DNA from: Candidatus Entotheonellaceae bacterium | GTDB lineage: Bacteria; Tectomicrobia; Entotheonellia; Entotheonellales; Entotheonellaceae | Length of the DNA stretch: 64,000 bases | Direction: 5' to 3' | Assembly (NCBI GenBank): GCA_965238075.1 | Contig: OZ250173.1 | Coordinates: 1,216,001-1,280,000, forward strand | Shown: positions 1-7,590 of the stretch, in pieces | Numbering within the stretch: the first letter of the stretch is position 1 | How the letters are laid out: every line of letters starts with the position of its first letter | Notes under the pieces: model-generated | Seen by the model: only the letters and a program-made list of their open reading frames with translations | Database searches by the model: none | Told to the model about the DNA's origin: nothing | Position numbers and translations under genes: made by a program

Positions 1-280
1 CTTCCGCAGCCTCGCCGTGAACGGTCGCCTGGTGACCTGCGGCGTCACTGCCGGTCATCGCGTCGACTTGCATCTGGGACAGGTGTTTACACGCGCTTTG
101 AGCATCATGGGGGTTGGGCGCGGCTCACCCGACGACATGCGCGAACTGCTGCGGCTCGTCGATCTGGGCCGCATACGTTCGGTCATCCACCAGCGTTTTC
201 CCCTGCGGGACGCCGCGGCGGCGCACCGCCTGCTGGAAAGCTCCGCGTTTTTCGGCAAGGTGGTGCTCAACCCGGCGTGA
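1..280 (+). CDS. 3' end of zinc-binding/quinone oxidoreductase (MDR family), truncated by window edge
   Basis: C-terminal 'GRLVTCGVTAG...VIHQRFPLRDAAAAHRLLESSAFFGKVVL' is typical of ADH_zinc_N_2 proteins. Confidence 0.75.
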   Translation, partial: FRSLAVNGRLVTCGVTAGHRVDLHLGQVFTRALSIMGVGRGSPDDMRELLRLVDLGRIRSVIHQRFPLRDAAAAHRLLESSAFFGKVVLNPA

Positions 281-341
281 TGCGCTGCAAGGCCGCTTTT
301 ATGGGCCTTTGCTCAAGACGCGTGAAAGGAGAGAAAGACGG

Positions 342-3300
342 ATGCCGAAACGGGACATTGAGACCTACGCGCATGCCGATAAGGAGCGCGTCAACAACCC
401 GCCTGTCGGCTTGGTCACGCCGGAGACCGACCGCGACGCGGGTCGCAGGACCTACGCCCACGACCCGCACCTGGACCCGCAACTCTCCTGGGCCGGCAAG
501 GCGGAGCATACGTCGTTCGAGGTGCCGACCGTGTCGCTGCACGTGCACGAACGGATCGACCCGCGCACCATCGTCGAAGCGGTGCGCAAGCGCAACGGCG
601 TGCAACCGCAGATGTCCTTGTTCGCCGCGCCGAAGGACAACCCGCCGCTGCGCCCGGCTATCGAGTTCTACCGGCACCGCCACAACTGGAGCAACCGCCT
701 GATTGCGGGCGACAGCCTGCTAGTCATGAACGGCCTGATCGAGAAGGAGGGTCTCGGCGGGCAGGTGCAGACGGTCTACCTCGACCCGCCCTACGGCATC
801 CGTTACGGCTCCAACTTCCAGCCCTTCGTAAACCGGCGCGAGGTCACCGACGGCAAGGACGAGGACCTGACCGGCGAGCCGGAGCAGATTCGCGCCTTCC
901 GGGACACCTGGGAACTCGGCATTCACTCCTACCTCGCGTACCTCCGGGACCGCTTGCTGCTGGCACGCGAGTTGCTGCACGCGAGCGGAAGCTGTTTCGT
1001 GCAGATAGGCGATGAGAACGTCCATTGCGTTGGCATGGCCATGGACGAGATCTTCGGGGCCGAGAACAGGGTGGCTACCATCTCCTACGCGACCACGGGC
1101 GGCAGTTCAGCCAACACGCTCCCGCAGGTGGCCGACTATCTGCTGTGGTATGCCAGGGATCGGAGGCGCGTGAAGTATCGGCAATTGTATGAACCTCTGA
1201 CGCGAGCCGAAGTGATCCAATTTTTCAGTTCATATGTCATGGTTGAGCTGCCCGGCGGAGAGTGCCGCAAACCGACCCTGGAAGAGTGTTTCGACCCAAA
1301 TAGTTATCTGCCGGAAGGGACGCGCATCTATCGCCGCATGCCTTTGTTATCGCGGGGCGGCTCCACGACCGGCCGCTCAGAGCCCTATGAGTGGAACAGT
1401 CAAGTCTTTCATTGCCCAACGGGTCAGCAGTGGCGGGTATCAAATCCGGAAGGGCTGGACCGGCTGGCTGAGTTAGGCCGACTGGATGCTGCTGGAGCCC
1501 AAAGTTCCTTAAGTTGGAAACGATACGAAGACGAGGTTCCCGGTCGGCGCATCAACAATATCTGGGCGCCGCCGATGTCGCCTAAAGACAAGCACTATGT
1601 AGTCGAAACCGCAACCAGCGTCATCCAGCGCTGCATCCTGATGACTACTGACCCCGGCGACCTAGTATTCGATCCTACCTGCGGCTCCGGCACCACCGCC
1701 TATGTCGCCGAACAATGGGGCCGGCGCTGGATGACCTGCGACACCTCGCGGGTAGCTATCGCTATTGCCCGGCAGCGGCTGATGACCTCAAATTACGACT
1801 ACTACGAGCTGGCCCATCCCGACGAGGGTGTCGGCGCCGGGTTCCGCTACCGCAGCGTTGCCACCGTCTCGGCGCGGATCCTGGGCTACGACGAGCCGCC
1901 CAATAGAACCCTGCTCTACGACCAGCCCCATAGCGACCGCAAGAAGGCCCGTGTCACCGGTCCGTTCACCGTGGAGGCGGTGCCGGCTCCCGTCGTCACG
2001 ACGGTAGACGAGATCATGGATGCTCCTCCTGCCCCTGACGTAAGCACCGCCGACCTGTCCATCGCCCGCTCCGGCGAAACCCTGCGGCAAAGCGACTGGC
2101 GCGACGAATTGCTCAAGACCGGCATTCGCGGCAAAGCAGGGCAGCGCATCTCGTTCGCGCGGCTGGAACCATTGCCGGGAACCCGCTGGCTGCACGCCGA
2201 GGGCGAGACGCACCCGGACGCCGCCGGCGCCGACCACGTGCATGAATCCGCCACCGCCTACGCGCCCACGCCTCTTGTGGTCTCGTTCGGGCCGCACCAC
2301 GCACCGCTGGAGCAGCGGCAGGTCGCCCGTGCCATCGAGGAGGCGCAAAGCCTCGTCCCGAAGCCGAAGATCATCATCTTCGCGGCGTTTCAGTTCGACC
2401 CCGAGGCGGCCAAGGACATCGACGAGACCCACTGGCCGGGCGTCACGCTGCTCAAGGCGCAGATGAACGCCGACTTGCTGACCGAGGACCTGAAGAAGAA
2501 GCGGGCAAGCAACGAGAGCTTCTGGCTGATCGGCCAGCCGGAGGTGGAAGTTTCGAGTTTTCAGTTTTTTGTTTTTGGTGAGGGGCAGCGGAGGATTGGC
2601 GAATATGGAGCGTTCAAGAAGCTATCGGGACTTGATCGTCTGGAAGAGATCAATCGGCTTGATTGGCAAGCTCTATTCCTATACGCGCTCCTTTCCCAGG
2701 GAAGAGACGTATGGCATTACCTCGCAGATACGCAGGGCTGGGATTTCGATAGCGGCCAATATCGCGGAAGGCCAGGCCAGAAACACGAGCGGGGAGTTCC
2801 GGCAGTTTCTTGGAATAGCCCAAGGCTCGTTGGCGGAATTGGAAACGCTACTGACGATCTCGCAGAATTTGGGATATATGACCTCGCCGGAGGCCGAAGG
2901 GTTATTCAGCGACTGCGAGGCGATCGGCAGGTTGTTGGCAGGCTTGCAGAAGTCGCTGAAGCCCTGAATTTTCCCATCCAACCCCGCACTCAAAACTATC
3001 AACTCAAAACTCAAAACTTGCACAGCCTCGCCGTGCACGGCTTCGACTACTACAACACCAAGACCGGCAACGTCGAATCCGGCGGCTCGGAACGTATCGC
3101 CCTGTGGATGCTCGACCCGGACTATGACGGGCGCAGCCTGTTTCCGCGCCAGGTGTTCTTCCCCACGGCCGGCGGCAATGGAGGCTGGGCGAGATTGGCC
3201 CGCCATCTCAAGGCCGAGATCGACGAGAGCCGGATGGAAGCCTATCGGGGCACCGTCTCGCTGCCGTTTGAGGCGGGGGAGCATCGACGGGCGGCGGTGA

Positions 3301-3353
3301 AGATTGTGGACGACCGCGGGATCGAGAGTTTGAAAATCGTGGAGTTGGGGTAA
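342..3353 (+). CDS. mod: Type III-like restriction-modification adenine methyltransferase (Mod), beta-class, with ~155-aa in-frame insertion near C-terminus
   Basis: AAGGAG RBS before ATG 342; motif IV 'YLDPPYGI' precedes motif I 'VFDPTCGSGTT'; C-terminal 'GFDYYNTKTG...WMLDPDYDGRS...AAVKIVDDRGIESLKI'; upstream of Res. Confidence 0.93.
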   Translation: MPKRDIETYAHADKERVNNPPVGLVTPETDRDAGRRTYAHDPHLDPQLSWAGKAEHTSFEVPTVSLHVHERIDPRTIVEAVRKRNGVQPQMSLFAAPKDNPPLRPAIEFYRHRHNWSNRLIAGDSLLVMNGLIEKEGLGGQVQTVYLDPPYGIRYGSNFQPFVNRREVTDGKDEDLTGEPEQIRAFRDTWELGIHSYLAYLRDRLLLARELLHASGSCFVQIGDENVHCVGMAMDEIFGAENRVATISYATTGGSSANTLPQVADYLLWYARDRRRVKYRQLYEPLTRAEVIQFFSSYVMVELPGGECRKPTLEECFDPNSYLPEGTRIYRRMPLLSRGGSTTGRSEPYEWNSQVFHCPTGQQWRVSNPEGLDRLAELGRLDAAGAQSSLSWKRYEDEVPGRRINNIWAPPMSPKDKHYVVETATSVIQRCILMTTDPGDLVFDPTCGSGTTAYVAEQWGRRWMTCDTSRVAIAIARQRLMTSNYDYYELAHPDEGVGAGFRYRSVATVSARILGYDEPPNRTLLYDQPHSDRKKARVTGPFTVEAVPAPVVTTVDEIMDAPPAPDVSTADLSIARSGETLRQSDWRDELLKTGIRGKAGQRISFARLEPLPGTRWLHAEGETHPDAAGADHVHESATAYAPTPLVVSFGPHHAPLEQRQVARAIEEAQSLVPKPKIIIFAAFQFDPEAAKDIDETHWPGVTLLKAQMNADLLTEDLKKKRASNESFWLIGQPEVEVSSFQFFVFGEGQRRIGEYGAFKKLSGLDRLEEINRLDWQALFLYALLSQGRDVWHYLADTQGWDFDSGQYRGRPGQKHERGVPAVSWNSPRLVGGIGNATDDLAEFGIYDLAGGRRVIQRLRGDRQVVGRLAEVAEALNFPIQPRTQNYQLKTQNLHSLAVHGFDYYNTKTGNVESGGSERIALWMLDPDYDGRSLFPRQVFFPTAGGNGGWARLARHLKAEIDESRMEAYRGTVSLPFEAGEHRRAAVKIVDDRGIESLKIVELG
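2548..3019. mobile_element. Intervening element inside mod: inverted heptamer-repeat arms enclosing a four-helix-bundle gene
   Basis: Left arm a-agtttcg-agttttc-agttttt-tgttttt-ggtg (2548-2580); right arm cact-caaaact-atcaact-caaaact-caaaact-t (2987-3019) is its imperfect reverse complement; interior is less GC-rich than flanking mod; separates 'WLIGQPEVE' from 'VHGFDYYN'. Confidence 0.8.
2605..2967 (+). CDS. Four helix bundle protein (23S rRNA intervening-sequence protein family, structurally related to DGR Avd), nested in mod in the +1 frame
   Basis: GGAGG at 2590-2594, ATG 2605; 120 aa with family motifs 'SYRDLIVW', 'FPREETYGITSQIRRAGISIAANIAEGQAR', 'FRQFLGIAQGSLAELET'. Confidence 0.92.
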   Translation: MERSRSYRDLIVWKRSIGLIGKLYSYTRSFPREETYGITSQIRRAGISIAANIAEGQARNTSGEFRQFLGIAQGSLAELETLLTISQNLGYMTSPEAEGLFSDCEAIGRLLAGLQKSLKP

Positions 3354-4135
3354 TGGCGCAAACGAAAAAAGGCAAGGCGCTTGAACGGTTGCGGAAAGCG
3401 CTGGATGAAATGCCTGAACTGAAACAATTTCGGCTGGACTCGCCATCATTCAAAAAATGGCGAAGAGATACAGAGGTGGCCATCACCAACACGTTTGATA
3501 GCGAATCAAGCCACATCAACGATTTCCAAAAAGAGATCCTTTCATATGTTAATGACGCATCCGATGCAGAGGTTCGGGAATCAGTGAAGGCGATACTCGA
3601 ATCCATGGTTGATGAGATCAACAAGTACTGGGGAGATGAAAGCGAGGCGTCGCGGTCTTCCGATAGTCACAGGGATGGACAGATAAACACGAAAGAAGTC
3701 TTCATTGTTCACGGCAGGAACAAAGGTGCCCGTGAAAAGGTAGCGAGGTTTCTGGAAAGGTTGGAACTCAAACCCGTGGTGCTGCACGAACAGCCGAATG
3801 AAGGCCGCACAATTATCGAAAAGTTTGAGGATTTTGCGCATGTCGGGTTCGCCGTGGTTCTGCTGACGCCGGACGACATAGGCAGGCTGCAAGACGATGC
3901 GGGCGACTTCAGACCTCGCGCAAGGCAAAACGTCATTTTCGAGTTCGGGTACTTTATCGGAAAACTCGGTCGGGAGCGTGTCTGCGCTTTGGTGAAAGGG
4001 AACGTGGAAAGGCCGTCGGACTACGATGGCGTTGTTTACGTTCCATTGGACGACCTGGGTGGGTGGGAAATGAAGCTTGTCCGGGAGTTGACAAGCGTTG
4101 GATACAAGATCGACCTGAACCGGTTAGTGACATGA
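3353..4135 (+). CDS. TIR-like domain nucleotide-binding protein (CAP12/Pycsar-type TIR) with N-terminal helical domain
   Basis: 'VFIVHGRN...VLHEQPNEGRTIIEKFE...FAVVLLTPDD...RARQNVIFEFGYFIGKLGRERV'; TAATG overlap with mod stop. Confidence 0.88.
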   Translation: MAQTKKGKALERLRKALDEMPELKQFRLDSPSFKKWRRDTEVAITNTFDSESSHINDFQKEILSYVNDASDAEVRESVKAILESMVDEINKYWGDESEASRSSDSHRDGQINTKEVFIVHGRNKGAREKVARFLERLELKPVVLHEQPNEGRTIIEKFEDFAHVGFAVVLLTPDDIGRLQDDAGDFRPRARQNVIFEFGYFIGKLGRERVCALVKGNVERPSDYDGVVYVPLDDLGGWEMKLVRELTSVGYKIDLNRLVT

Positions 4136-4443
4136 ACGCACGTATCGACATACCGTCTGACAAAATCGCTGCCTTCTGTCAGCGTTGGCAGATCACGCGC
4201 CTTGCGCTGTTCGGATCGATATTGCGCGACGACTTCGGGTCCGATAGCGATATTGATGTTCTCGTTAAATTCAATGAAACGGCGCACCCCACGCTGTTCG
4301 ACATGAGCCGAATGGAAGCAGAGTTGAAGGCGATTCTGGGGCGCGAGGTCGATCTCGTCAGCCAGCGCGGTGTAGAGAGGAGCCGCAATTTCCTGCGCCG
4401 AAAAGCGATATTGGAATCCGCGGAACTCGTCTATGGATCGTGA
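4132..4443 (+). CDS. Minimal nucleotidyltransferase antitoxin (MntA-like)
   Basis: 'LALFGSILRDDFGSDSDIDVLV' GS..D.D motif; ATGA overlap with TIR gene. Confidence 0.9.
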   Translation: MNARIDIPSDKIAAFCQRWQITRLALFGSILRDDFGSDSDIDVLVKFNETAHPTLFDMSRMEAELKAILGREVDLVSQRGVERSRNFLRRKAILESAELVYGS

Positions 4444-4774
4444 TACCGGATCTATTCTCGATATCCTCGAATCGGCCCGGACGATAATGGCCTATGTCAC
4501 AGGCGTTACGCGCCAGGAGTTTTTGCGGGCTACTCAAATTCAGGATTCCGTCATTCGTCGCCTTGAGATCATCGGCGAGGCAGCGGGACGCATCTCACCG
4601 GGATTTCGCGACACGCATCCGGAAATTCAGTGGTCCGAAATAAGGGGAATGCGAAACCGGATGACCCATGGATACGACGACATTGATATGGATATCGTGT
4701 GGGACACTGTTGAGCGCGATATCCCGCATCTCATTCAAATTATTGAATCACTTGCACCACCGAAGACCGAATAG
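4433..4774 (+). CDS. HEPN/DUF86 ribonuclease toxin (HepT-like)
   Basis: 'RRLEIIGEAA' and R-x4-H-x-Y motif 'RNRMTHGYDDID...VWDTV'; follows MNT gene. Confidence 0.9.
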   Translation: MDRDTGSILDILESARTIMAYVTGVTRQEFLRATQIQDSVIRRLEIIGEAAGRISPGFRDTHPEIQWSEIRGMRNRMTHGYDDIDMDIVWDTVERDIPHLIQIIESLAPPKTE

Positions 4775-7590
4775 TGGCCCAAACGACCATCGATCGCCTG
4801 ATCGTCAACTCGCCCTACGAAGAGCCGGCGAAGCACTGGCAGTACGACCGGGTCACGCGCTCGTTCGGCCTTGCGGAGGGCCGGCGACCGGCGGGGTATG
4901 TTGTCGCTTCCCAAGACTCCAAGGCGTTTGACGACCCCGGTGTGTTTGTCGAAATTCCCTTGGTCAATCAGATCCGGCCGCGTGTCAAGGCATGGCGTGA
5001 AGCCGGGTATCCGGGCGTCACCGGCATGACCAAGCGGCTGCTGGCGCACTGGACCGACCCGGAGGAGTTTGACAGCCGGCGGTTCTTCTTCTGCCAGCTC
5101 GAGGCGGTGGAGACGCTCATCTGGCTCATTGAGGCGCCGGCGGCTGAAAAGGTGGGCGTGCAGATTCCTTCCGCTGGCGGCGCGTTCAGGCGACTGTGCG
5201 CGAAGATGGCCACCGGCTCAGGCAAAACCGTCGTCATGGCAATGGTGGCGGCGTGGCACATCCTGAACAAGGTGACATCGCCCCAGGACACCCGATTCGC
5301 CAGGCACATCCTGGTTGTCGCGCCGGGGCTCACGGTCAGGAACCGCCTGGCGGTGTTGGAGCCGTCCCACCCGGAGAACTATTACGACGCCTTCCGAATC
5401 GTGCCGTCAGCCTTGCTTGACAAGCTGCGGCAAGGCAAGGTCGTGATCCGCAACTGGCACGCGCTCAACTGGGAGGGTGGGGGCAAAATCGCCGCCAAGC
5501 GCGGCGTGGACAAGCGCGGCGCCAAAAGCGACGAAGCGTATGTGCGCGACGTGCTCGGAGACATGGCGCGGGCGCGGAACATCCTGGTCATTAACGACGA
5601 GGCGCATCACGCCTGGCGCGTTCCCGCCGAATCCAAGATGAAGGGCGTGGCGAAGGCCGACATCGACGAGGCTACCAAGTGGATTGGCGGCCTCGACCGC
5701 ATCCACAGGGCGCGGGGCATTCTGACCTGCTACGACTTCTCGGCCACCCCTTTCGCGCCGTCAGGCAAGCGGAGTTCCGAGGAGGCGTTGTTCGGCTGGA
5801 TCGTGAGCGACTTCGGCCTGAACGACGCCATCGAATCGGGTCTGGTCAAGACCCCGCGCGTGGTGATCCGGGACGACGCGGTGCCCGATGCCAAGACTTA
5901 CAGATCCCGCCTCTATCACATCTACAACGATGCGGAGGTCAAAGACGACCTGAACCGCCACGCCAAGACGGAAGAACCGCTGCCCGATCTGGTCCTGAAC
6001 GGTTATTACCTGCTCGGCTACGACTGGCGCGAGACGGCGAAGGACTGGAGCGACAAGGGATTCCAGACCCCGCCGGTCATGATTACCGTTGCCAACCGCA
6101 CGGAGACGGCAGCTCGCATCAAGTACGCGTTTGGCCACAAGAGGGTCCATATCGAGGAACTATGCGACCCGGCGCGCACCCTTCACATCGACTCGAAGGT
6201 GCTCGAAGCGGCTGAGGCTGCTGAAGAAGTTTTAAGTGGCAAGTTTTCAGTGGATGCCAGCAAGGACGGTCTAAAAACTGAAAACGTAAAACCGCCAACC
6301 AAGAAGCAGCAAGCCGAGCTGCTGCGCCGGCAGGTGGACAGCGTGGGCCGGCTTGGCAAGGAGGGCGAGCGGATACAGAACGTGATTTCCGTTGGCATGC
6401 TCTCCGAGGGATGGGACGCAAAGACCGTAACCCACATCATGGGATTGCGCGCGTTCACCAGCCAGCTTCTCTGCGAGCAGGTGGTCGGCCGCGGCCTGCG
6501 TCGCACCTCCTATGAAGTGGACCCGAGTAGCGGTCTGTTCAAGCCGGAATACGTCAACATTTTCGGCGTGCCCTTTACGTTTCTGCCCCACGAGGGGGGA
6601 ACGGACGGCCCACCGCCGCCGCCGGAACCAAAGACGGCTATCGAGCCGGTAGCGGACCAGGCGGGTTTCGAAATCTCCTGGCCGAACGTGATCCGCATCG
6701 ACCACGGCTTCCGTCCGCACCTGTCCCTGGATTGGCAGGCGCTGCAGCCCCTGGAACTCGACGCCAGCCAGACGGCCAGGCTCGCCGAGCTTGCTCCGAT
6801 CGTCGAAGGCAAGCCCGACGTGTCGAAGATCGAGGCGATCGACCTGGGAAAGCTGGCGACAGAGTTTCGTACGCAGCGCATCGTCTTTGAGACGGCGCGG
6901 GACGTGTACGATCTGATGCAGCCGAACTGGCCGGGCGGCAAGGCGTTGCTGCTGGCCCAGCTGGTGCGGTTGATCGAGCAATTCATTCGCTCGGATAGCA
7001 TCAGGATTACCCCGGCCCTGTTCCGGCATGACGATCTCAAGCGCCGCCTCATCATCACGCTCAACATGACCAAGGTTGTGCAGCATGTCTGGGAGGGCAT
7101 CCGCTTCGAGAATACCGAAAGACTGGAGCCGGTGTTCGACCGGGACCGGCCCATCCGTTCTACGGGTGACATGGCGACGTGGTACACGGGCAAGCCGTGC
7201 GAACGCGCGGCACGCAGTCACATCAACTTCTGCGTCTACGACGGCACCTGGGAGGCAACGGAGGCCTTCGCCCTCGATCATGCCGACGAGGTGGCTGCCT
7301 GGGTGAAGAACGATCACCTCGGTTTCGAGGCGTTCTACGTTCACCGAGGCGTGGTGCGGAAGTACCGCCCGGATTTCCTGATCCGGCTCTCCTCGGGCGA
7401 CATGCTGGTTCTGGAGGTCAAGGGGCAAGACAGCGATCGGGACCAGACCAAGCGCCGATTCCTCGACGAATGGGTACGCGCCGTCAATGCCCATGGTGGC
7501 TTCGGTCGCTGGGCCTGGGACGTGTCGAAATCTCCCAGCGACATTCGCGACATCCTCGCAAAGCGCGCCCATGCGGCGTCTACTGCTTGA
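4774..7590 (+). CDS. res: Type III-like restriction endonuclease/helicase subunit (Res)
   Basis: Walker A 'MATGSGKT', 'NDEAHH', 'SATP', 'MLSEGWDA', 'EQVVGRGLRR', C-terminal PD-(D/E)xK 'YRPDFLIRL...LEVKG'; GTG start overlapping HEPN stop. Confidence 0.93.
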   Translation: MAQTTIDRLIVNSPYEEPAKHWQYDRVTRSFGLAEGRRPAGYVVASQDSKAFDDPGVFVEIPLVNQIRPRVKAWREAGYPGVTGMTKRLLAHWTDPEEFDSRRFFFCQLEAVETLIWLIEAPAAEKVGVQIPSAGGAFRRLCAKMATGSGKTVVMAMVAAWHILNKVTSPQDTRFARHILVVAPGLTVRNRLAVLEPSHPENYYDAFRIVPSALLDKLRQGKVVIRNWHALNWEGGGKIAAKRGVDKRGAKSDEAYVRDVLGDMARARNILVINDEAHHAWRVPAESKMKGVAKADIDEATKWIGGLDRIHRARGILTCYDFSATPFAPSGKRSSEEALFGWIVSDFGLNDAIESGLVKTPRVVIRDDAVPDAKTYRSRLYHIYNDAEVKDDLNRHAKTEEPLPDLVLNGYYLLGYDWRETAKDWSDKGFQTPPVMITVANRTETAARIKYAFGHKRVHIEELCDPARTLHIDSKVLEAAEAAEEVLSGKFSVDASKDGLKTENVKPPTKKQQAELLRRQVDSVGRLGKEGERIQNVISVGMLSEGWDAKTVTHIMGLRAFTSQLLCEQVVGRGLRRTSYEVDPSSGLFKPEYVNIFGVPFTFLPHEGGTDGPPPPPEPKTAIEPVADQAGFEISWPNVIRIDHGFRPHLSLDWQALQPLELDASQTARLAELAPIVEGKPDVSKIEAIDLGKLATEFRTQRIVFETARDVYDLMQPNWPGGKALLLAQLVRLIEQFIRSDSIRITPALFRHDDLKRRLIITLNMTKVVQHVWEGIRFENTERLEPVFDRDRPIRSTGDMATWYTGKPCERAARSHINFCVYDGTWEATEAFALDHADEVAAWVKNDHLGFEAFYVHRGVVRKYRPDFLIRLSSGDMLVLEVKGQDSDRDQTKRRFLDEWVRAVNAHGGFGRWAWDVSKSPSDIRDILAKRAHAASTA
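6228..6300. repeat. Gene-less heptamer inverted-repeat hairpin in frame within res
   Basis: agtttta-agtggca-agttttc-agtggat ... aaaaact-gaaaacg-taaaacc-gccaacc; perfect core gttttcagt (6243-6251) / actgaaaac (6277-6285); AT-rich patch in GC-rich gene. Confidence 0.65.

Follow-up and report, generated by a model that had tools for sequence, protein, structure and literature searches.

A gene for a type III-like DNA methyltransferase, Mod, in the genome of Candidatus Entotheonellaceae bacterium carries within its reading frame a cassette made up of a second, much smaller gene and two flanking repeat arrays, and the Mod frame is free of stop codons throughout. The gene lies in a stretch of 64,000 nucleotides (nt) on contig OZ250173.1 of assembly GCA_965238075.1 (positions 1,216,001 to 1,280,000), hereafter the window, in which all coordinates are counted unless another locus is named. 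Positions 114–3353 of the forward strand form one continuous open frame, in which Mod extends from an ATG at 342 to 3353 and comprises 1003 amino acids (aa), the cassette apparently being translated through. Mod was identified as the modification subunit of a type III restriction-modification system by an N6/N4 methyltransferase domain (PF01555, 5.9e-25) with DPPY and an S-adenosylmethionine-binding motif (DPPY and DPTCGSGTT are visible in the translation), by a PADLOC match to MTase_III (3.4e-145), and by a Res partner in the same operon. In a PDB sequence search with a homologue that lacks the cassette (an empty-site Mod), the type III Mod structures 6k0w and 4zcf were matched, with only the catalytic domain covered.

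The cassette occupies 2550–3020 of the forward strand, in what would be the place of a Mod beta-hairpin tip. Its gene (2605–2967, forward strand, ATG to TGA), in the frame one base after that of Mod, encodes a four-helix-bundle protein of 120 aa belonging to the family known from intervening sequences (IVS) of 23S rRNA (PF05635, 2.6e-35; TIGR02436, 8.5e-35; NF008911; PDB 2GSC, 1.3e-22). A putative ribosome-binding site read from the sequence, GGAGG at 2590–2594 of the same strand, lies 10 nt ahead of the ATG at 2605, and purine-rich motifs stand at the equivalent position in other cassette loci. The gene is bracketed by two arms of 42 nt that form an inverted repeat with 79% complementarity: on the left an array of AGTTTTN-type heptamers (2544–2585, forward strand), read as VSSFQFFVFGEG in the Mod frame, and on the right the complementary NAAAACT heptamers (2982–3023, forward strand), read as TQNYQLKTQNLH. 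The arm duplex in the window has a predicted energy of −53.0 kcal/mol against −32.9 for shuffled sequences (z = −4.7); across 23 of the loci described below z ranged from +0.1 to −6.8 and was negative in 22. Heptamers beside the open reading frame (ORF) are AGTTTTN units in 10 of 24 such loci and AGTGGNN units in 14. GC content is 0.624 for the window, 0.548 for the nested gene, 0.455 for the 5' flank (2550–2604, left arm and ribosome-binding region) and 0.396 for the 3' flank (2968–3020, which holds the right arm). The left arm has runs of T (CAGTTTTTTGTTTTTGG) at 2562–2577 within the Mod frame, arms of the AGTGGNN type being without such runs, and the nested frame, too, is open from about 2551; judging from these features, slippage at the T runs could in principle fuse the N-terminal part of Mod to the small nested protein.

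Across 2550–3020 the Mod frame runs for 157 codons without a stop and the nested frame contains only its own; the third forward frame has 8 stops and the three reverse frames have 3, 7 and 5. Beyond the cassette, the conserved C-terminal domain of Mod (3021–3353, forward strand) is in phase with upstream Mod (frame offset 0). An earlier note on this DNA, made from the sequence alone, had described both the stop-free run of about 157 codons and the in-frame return of the C-terminus, and both were reproduced here. A T immediately before a nested codon that begins with AA, AG or GA creates a stop in the Mod frame, and none of the 28 nested codons of this kind is preceded by a T-ending codon, T-ending codons numbering 15 of 121 overall. 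When the synonymous codons of the nested gene were permuted 5000 times, a check that the earlier note had proposed, the Mod frame remained open in 3.5% of permutations, with 2.4 stops expected, and the signal beyond chance at this locus taken alone is marginal. The note had reasoned that an off-frame of a moderate-GC gene would normally hit several stops, and that openness here suggested selection for read-through; its premise turned out to be only weakly true at this GC (P = 0.035), and a single open off-frame is weak evidence at GC 0.55. It had also held that its reading would fail if free-standing genes of similar GC often left this frame open, and among relatives lying outside Mod genes the equivalent frame is open in 3 of 19 at GC ≥ 0.52 and, at lower GC, in 1 of 12 and 1 of 23. 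The selection that it proposed is supported by other means, through relatives of the cassette.

With the nested protein as query we scanned a single genome of each species, which gave 469 confirmed relatives, and sorted the best 80 of the 469 by their flanks alone (tblastn with the N- and C-terminal parts of Mod). Of these best 80 PF05635 loci, 23 sit at the identical site in homologous type III Mod genes, the Mod N-part ending at query residue 735–736 before the gene and the C-part beginning at residue 1–5 after it. Their hosts, which belong by record title to Planctomycetota, Bacteroidota, Spirochaetota, Pseudomonadota, Poribacteria and others, have Mod identities to the window of 28–92%. 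Together with the window they make a set of 24 Mod-nested loci, which was compared with 54 non-Mod loci; L040, L058 and L069, with nested ORFs of fewer than 100 codons (12 codons in L069), were excluded from the non-Mod tallies, and L033 and L062 from the codon alignments used for synonymous-site sharing, the cassette tree, overlapping dN/dS and T-position counts.

Both frames are open across the overlap in 23 of the 24 Mod-nested loci, which answers in the affirmative the earlier note's question of whether other intragenic four-helix-bundle insertions keep the host frame. In the Mod frame of all 24 together, one stop was observed (in L092) against 69.6 expected by permutation, whereas the alternative frame of the 54 non-Mod loci held 195 stops against 287.4 expected. 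The difference was present in every GC class: open frames were found in 8/8 Mod-nested against 1/12 other loci at GC < 0.45 (where non-Mod loci average 6.4 alternative-frame stops), in 3/3 against 1/23 at GC 0.45–0.52, and in 12/13 against 3/19 at GC ≥ 0.52. In Mod-nested copies a third-position T precedes an AA, AG or GA codon in 1 of 628 cases, compared with 399 of 1991 (20%) at other third positions; in non-Mod copies the figures are 195 of 1573 (12.4%) and 1108 of 4829 (22.9%). The stop-making T is thus depleted in non-Mod copies too, which could reflect dinucleotide bias or be a trace of past intragenic life. To allow for kinship, the loci were grouped into 10 clusters at 70% identity and each cluster was represented by its least significant member; the Fisher combined p was 1.7e-6. 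Codon 87 of the nested gene of L033 is a premature TAG (CAG in the window), while a Mod frame of 1032 residues is still open, a pattern suggesting that, of the two frames, it is Mod's whose loss is not tolerated. A related cassette is hosted by a PglX/type IIG methylase of BREX type (L110), whose frame is likewise open, with 183 host codons upstream and 209 downstream. On the strength of the relatives, and not of the single-locus statistic, selection for read-through is strongly supported at the level of the family and probable at this locus.

If ribosomes read through the cassette, purifying selection on the Mod C-terminal domain is to be expected. Among 25 cassette-bearing Mods (the 24 Mod-nested loci and a same-genus relative, G002), the C-terminal domain is in the upstream Mod frame in 23. 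Measured between the GxPD and GxD motifs, the segment takes six lengths in the 19 measurable hosts (157, 158, 164, 165, 169 and 170 residues), all in phase; cassette lengths taken from alignment ends are equivalent to the frame offset and were not counted as separate evidence. Divergence in the C-terminal domain at codon positions 1, 2 and 3 was 0.057, 0.057 and 0.406 between L059 and L070, 0, 0 and 0.112 between L081 and L088, and 0.109, 0.073 and 0.364 between G000 and L033, and this third-position excess marks the domain as translated and under purifying selection in cassette-bearing Mods. The only two out-of-phase cassettes are those of G001 and G005, both of the window's genus, and both depart in the right arm (the equivalent of 2988–3010 in the window), G001 by +14 nt, or two heptamers, and G005 by −7 nt, or one heptamer; slippage by heptamer units in an arm shifts the Mod frame by one.

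Selection on the two overlapping frames was estimated with our own implementation of an overlapping-gene ratio of nonsynonymous to synonymous divergence (dN/dS), in the style of OLGenie. The nested frame is under clear purifying selection in Mod-nested copies (dNN/dSN 0.19–0.20). For the Mod frame, dN/dS was 0.61 (0.43–0.91) in the window's arm group and 1.05 (0.83–1.34) in the other, compared with 0.77–1.79 for the equivalent frame of control copies outside Mod, and no Pfam family was matched by the 157-aa Mod-frame peptide. These ratios suggest that constraint on the read-through peptide is weak at most and that the loop is mainly a spacer. The description of this peptide in the earlier note as off-frame text and not a domain agrees with the Pfam result, and its phrase 'junk loop' is roughly right, allowing for the ratio of 0.61 in one arm group. 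Between G000 and L033, third positions diverge by 0.093 in the nested gene against 0.364 in the Mod C-terminus, and at equal nested identity Mod-nested pairs share 0.53–0.63 of synonymous sites, free pairs 0.38–0.45. Both signals hint at additional constraint, and both would also follow if the cassette had been exchanged more recently. A database search with the read-through peptide found 25 proteins, every one of them a single long ORF and none named; four of the 25 also carry PF04480.

The insertion site was located by comparison with Mods that lack the cassette. Empty-site homologues have 20–24 residues between the GxPD and GxD motifs (for example, GEPDIDVQETGDGCMRVKINGVDVF), and in G003, of the window's genus, 13 codons stand in place of the cassette between flanks that are 92–94% identical in DNA. 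The structural model of the G003 C-terminal part (mean predicted local distance difference test (pLDDT) 83.7, predicted template modelling score (pTM) 0.72) contains a beta-hairpin in which the strand DVEIKR, the loop VPEGEDEGK and the strand YRISVQGFDYYN reach pLDDT 87–93; a Foldseek search of this model against PDB gave no match at E ≤ 0.001. The full-length model of Mod with the insert reached a mean pLDDT of only 56 and a pTM of 0.35 and, being too poor to judge the folding of the read-through peptide, was used solely for the secondary structure of the flanking strands, which were called at 733–745 and 888–904; part of the insert was modelled as helices at pLDDT 60–75. On these models the cassette appears to take the place of the hairpin loop, and its arms, read in the Mod frame, would extend both strands.

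The distribution of the cassette is patchy and points to repeated gain, loss and exchange. A Mod tree of 25 rows, computed after removal of the cassette columns, shows both arm types and empty sites intermingled, with five empty-site Mods among the cassette-bearing ones, and its starred branches require no fewer than 3, 5 and 5 changes. Copies outside Mod likewise lie among Mod-nested ones in the tree of the cassette protein (76 rows), where at least 3 changes are forced; the nearest non-Mod copies have an alternative frame that is open (L052 and L074) or depleted of stops (L036 and L066) and look like recent departures from the Mod site. L034 is a mosaic whose Mod is 59% identical to that of the window overall and 85% beside the cassette, which suggests that the cassette was transferred along with flanking Mod sequence by recombination. 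The Mod of G001 has a second insertion of about 600 nt (L023 2338–2965), flanked by GC-rich inverted repeats, in which a DUF559/MTES_1575 endonuclease-like domain is read in frame with Mod. The only other PF05635 gene of the window's genome (C1:882876–883268; L002 1453–1845) lies between type I hsdR-like and hsdS-like genes, its start overlapping the upstream stop (ATGA) and with no obvious heptamer arms, and both PF05635 genes of this genome therefore reside in restriction-modification loci.

In three RNA libraries from a single study, contigs bridge Mod, cassette and Mod without interruption, one of them covering 2007–3068, and fit co-transcription, with DNA carry-over a possible source of such contigs (depth, being per contig, was not taken to indicate expression). 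Joints that skip 486–492 nt were also seen, with a shorter side of 23–48 nt and the sequence between not known. In the same runs, loose ends occur at 2545 and 3031–3042, where contigs at least 90% like the window's Mod flanks enter AGTGNNN-type arms or an empty-site hairpin, suggesting co-occurring Mod alleles with a different cassette or none. That the 486–492-nt joints are products of splicing or excision is improbable, given their short sides, the unknown sequence between and the other arms and empty hairpins at the loose ends; as reads were counted from 90% likeness, the joints probably derive from other Mod homologues.

Downstream of Mod the operon continues on the forward strand with a TIR-domain gene, a candidate defence gene (3353–4135; PF10137, 2e-40; PADLOC PDC-S35, 5.9e-85), whose start overlaps the Mod stop (TAATG); with an MNT/HepT toxin-antitoxin pair (4132–4774; MNT from ATG 4132 to 4443, HepT 4433–4774; PF01909 and PF01934), joined to the TIR stop by an ATGA overlap; and with the Res subunit, a restriction endonuclease of the BPTD_3080 family (4774–7590; NF046055, 1120.8 bits; PF04851). 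The TIR gene and the MNT/HepT pair are thus wedged between Mod and Res, and G002 is without MNT/HepT. Overlaps of a stop with the next start recur along the operon, and these (TAATG, ATGA) would agree with the translational coupling proposed in the earlier note. The same note had suggested that a lethal Res partner enforces the open frame, and for this the pattern within the genus gives no demonstration, being mixed: G000 keeps the frame and has an intact Res; G002 keeps the frame while its Res has an in-frame stop within the first ~60 codons (L030 1812–1998), leaving an ORF of 894 residues from a TTG; G001 has lost the frame, with an intact Res ORF and a frameshifted TIR gene; and in G005, a decaying locus, the frame is lost and Mod residues 241–400 and most of Res are deleted.

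Our preferred interpretation, to which we assign a probability of about 0.8, is that an IVS-type cassette has entered a hairpin of Mod and is translated through, the Mod frame being kept open by selection. The cassette, consisting of two inverted arrays of 7-base repeats around a PF05635 gene with its own ribosome-binding site, would be placed at the turn of a surface beta-hairpin just ahead of the conserved C-terminal domain of Mod. One DNA segment would then give two products, the small protein from its own ATG and a full-length, active Mod by read-through, ribosomes translating Mod passing through arm, gene and arm with an offset of one base from the nested frame before they enter the C-terminal domain. 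Selection on Mod would remove T from nested third positions ahead of AA, AG and GA codons, and only changes of arm or cassette length by multiples of three would persist. The read-through segment of about 150 residues would be mainly a tolerated spacer, with the arms lengthening the two hairpin strands. The cassette itself would be mobile or exchangeable, repeatedly gained, lost and swapped at one site, probably with neighbouring Mod sequence by recombination. The analysis shows that both frames are open, that stops are avoided and phase is conserved, that the nested protein and the C-terminus of Mod are under purifying selection, and that the distribution is patchy; the production of a full-length, active Mod, the hairpin geometry and the mode of spread are inferred.

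Several observations weigh against this interpretation. The window alone is statistically weak (P(open) = 0.035), and the equivalent of the Mod frame is also open in three of the 19 relatives that lie outside Mod at GC ≥ 0.52. The 24 loci are related and do not amount to 24 independent trials, and for non-Mod copies permutation predicts about 1.5 times as many stops as occur (287 against 195). In the window's genus, which has four Mods with a cassette, two of them, G001 and G005, are out of phase, G001 in spite of an intact Res ORF. The full-length model is poor and does not establish the loop geometry, and RNA-library contigs, which may hold DNA, cannot show translation.

The same evidence bears on other explanations. 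That the off-frame of a 120-codon gene is open by chance in GC-rich DNA, with Mod merely interrupted, could draw on the weakness of the single-locus statistic, on the three open GC-rich relatives and on long open frames on the opposite strand too (for example, 2679–3449); we nevertheless consider it barely credible in the face of eight open frames in eight Mod-nested loci at GC < 0.45, where non-Mod loci average 6.4 stops, of a stop-making T in 1 of 628 positions, of phase kept in 23 of 25 Mods and of purifying selection on the C-terminus, all in hosts that, with Mod identities down to 28%, are not near-copies of one recent event. The frame inside the cassette would be irrelevant if the cassette were removed before translation, either by RNase III-type excision and rejoining or by excision of DNA, but an untranslated interior would face no selection against stops or for phase, and an Rfam scan of 2300–3300, intron families included, gave no match at E ≤ 1. 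The arms do form a long stem like those of the 23S rRNA IVS described in the relevant part of PMC4990558 as excised by RNase III, and joints skipping 486–492 nt do exist; those joints have short sides of 23–48 nt and unknown sequence between, and the loose ends fit other Mod homologues, so that removal of this kind has next to no probability in our estimation.

Two further explanations grant that the Mod frame matters. Gain or loss of 7-base units could toggle the C-terminal domain, as in phase-variable type III mod genes, and the two cassettes that are out of phase, the only such cases, do differ by whole units in the right arm (+14 nt, two units, and −7 nt, one unit); the arrays, however, are short and imperfect, phase is kept in 23 of 25, one of the two exceptions (G005) is a decaying locus with Mod residues 241–400 and most of Res deleted, and no arm-length variants appeared in four public runs (whose contigs drop rare variants), making such a switch quite improbable. 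Domestication, in which the restriction-modification system makes use of the four-helix-bundle protein, of the read-through segment or of the two together, for instance as a regulator or as an extra domain of Mod, and both frames are functional, is in our view unlikely. It would fit the Mod-frame dNN/dNS of 0.61 (0.43–0.91) in the window's arm group, the low third-position divergence of the nested gene (0.093 against 0.364 between G000 and L033), the greater sharing of synonymous sites in Mod-nested than in free pairs (0.53–0.63 against 0.38–0.45), the helices modelled in part of the insert at pLDDT 60–75, the location of both PF05635 genes of the genome in restriction-modification loci and the existence of a PglX host. 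Against it stand the ratio of 1.05 (0.83–1.34) in the other arm group, the range of 0.77–1.79 in free controls and the failure of the peptide to match Pfam; the nested gene of L033 is prematurely stopped while its Mod frame is open, many close Mod relatives are without a cassette, with five empty-site Mods interleaved on the tree, and more recent cassette exchange would also lower divergence.

As a cassette apparently translated through and held open by selection on its host, the element shares features with several known systems and departs from each. ORF-bearing IVS in the 23S rRNA of Coxiella burnetii (S23p) and Leptospira, in the description given in the relevant part of PMC4990558, have stem-forming terminal repeats and heptamers beside the ORF and span ~430–470 nt, so that the PF05635 family, the repeats, the heptamers and the size are all common to them and the cassette. 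Unlike these, the cassette lies within the Mod ORF and not in a 23S rRNA helix, and it must be translated through, hence its stop-free alternative frame and in-phase length; excision by RNase III would presumably destroy the Mod mRNA. Rickettsia palindromic elements lie in frame in host ORFs and are translated, apparently in a fold-compatible manner (PMC10969869, in a passage citing Ogata et al. 2000), and the cassette would be like them a palindromic insert translated as part of a host protein. As that passage presents them, the Rickettsia elements are ~150 bp long and without a gene of their own in another frame, whereas the cassette holds a complete, selected out-of-frame gene and recurs at one site of a gene family across phyla. 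As in same-strand overlapping genes of viruses and bacteria, two frames are open, one of them clearly under purifying selection, and synonymous sites of one are constrained by the other; the second frame here is constrained mainly to openness and phase and not to sequence, and the overlap originated in a mobile cassette inserting into the gene, not in overprinting. Inteins and group I and II introns are likewise selfish inserts at a fixed site of a conserved gene, patchy among close alleles; they differ in their RNA or protein splicing, whereas this insert would stay in the protein, and no intein or homing-endonuclease domain was found by Pfam in either frame. The literature searched, supplementary files aside, yielded no account of a protein-coding gene that hosts a PF05635 cassette.

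A wider proposal, which we offer tentatively and hold at slightly below even odds, is that heptamer-armed PF05635 cassettes are gene-carrying selfish elements that live in protein genes without splicing and favour defence methyltransferases, the non-Mod copies whose alternative frame is open or depleted of stops (L052, L074, L036 and L066) being recent escapees. Under that proposal the cassette would be kept stop-free and in phase and the host protein would be made with it as a surface loop, while imprecise loss would cost the host its protective methylation, making a defence methyltransferase such as type III Mod or PglX a safe harbour.

By being translated through, a cassette held open like this would add a third solution to the problem of occupying an important gene without destroying it, besides introns, which depend on RNA splicing, and inteins, which depend on protein splicing. 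Selection on the host would leave its signature in the synonymous sites of the element, as in the stop-making T at 1 of 628 positions against 20% elsewhere, and the unexplained IVS of 23S rRNA and their four-helix-bundle proteins would be extended to protein-coding hosts. The Mod-nested loci would provide a natural, replicated dual-coding system in which the strength of the constraint to stay open is measurable. For annotation, 'methyltransferases' of ~1000 residues in databases would conceal an unannotated nested gene, and for the biology of this Mod family the site of the cassette would mark a permissive insertion point.

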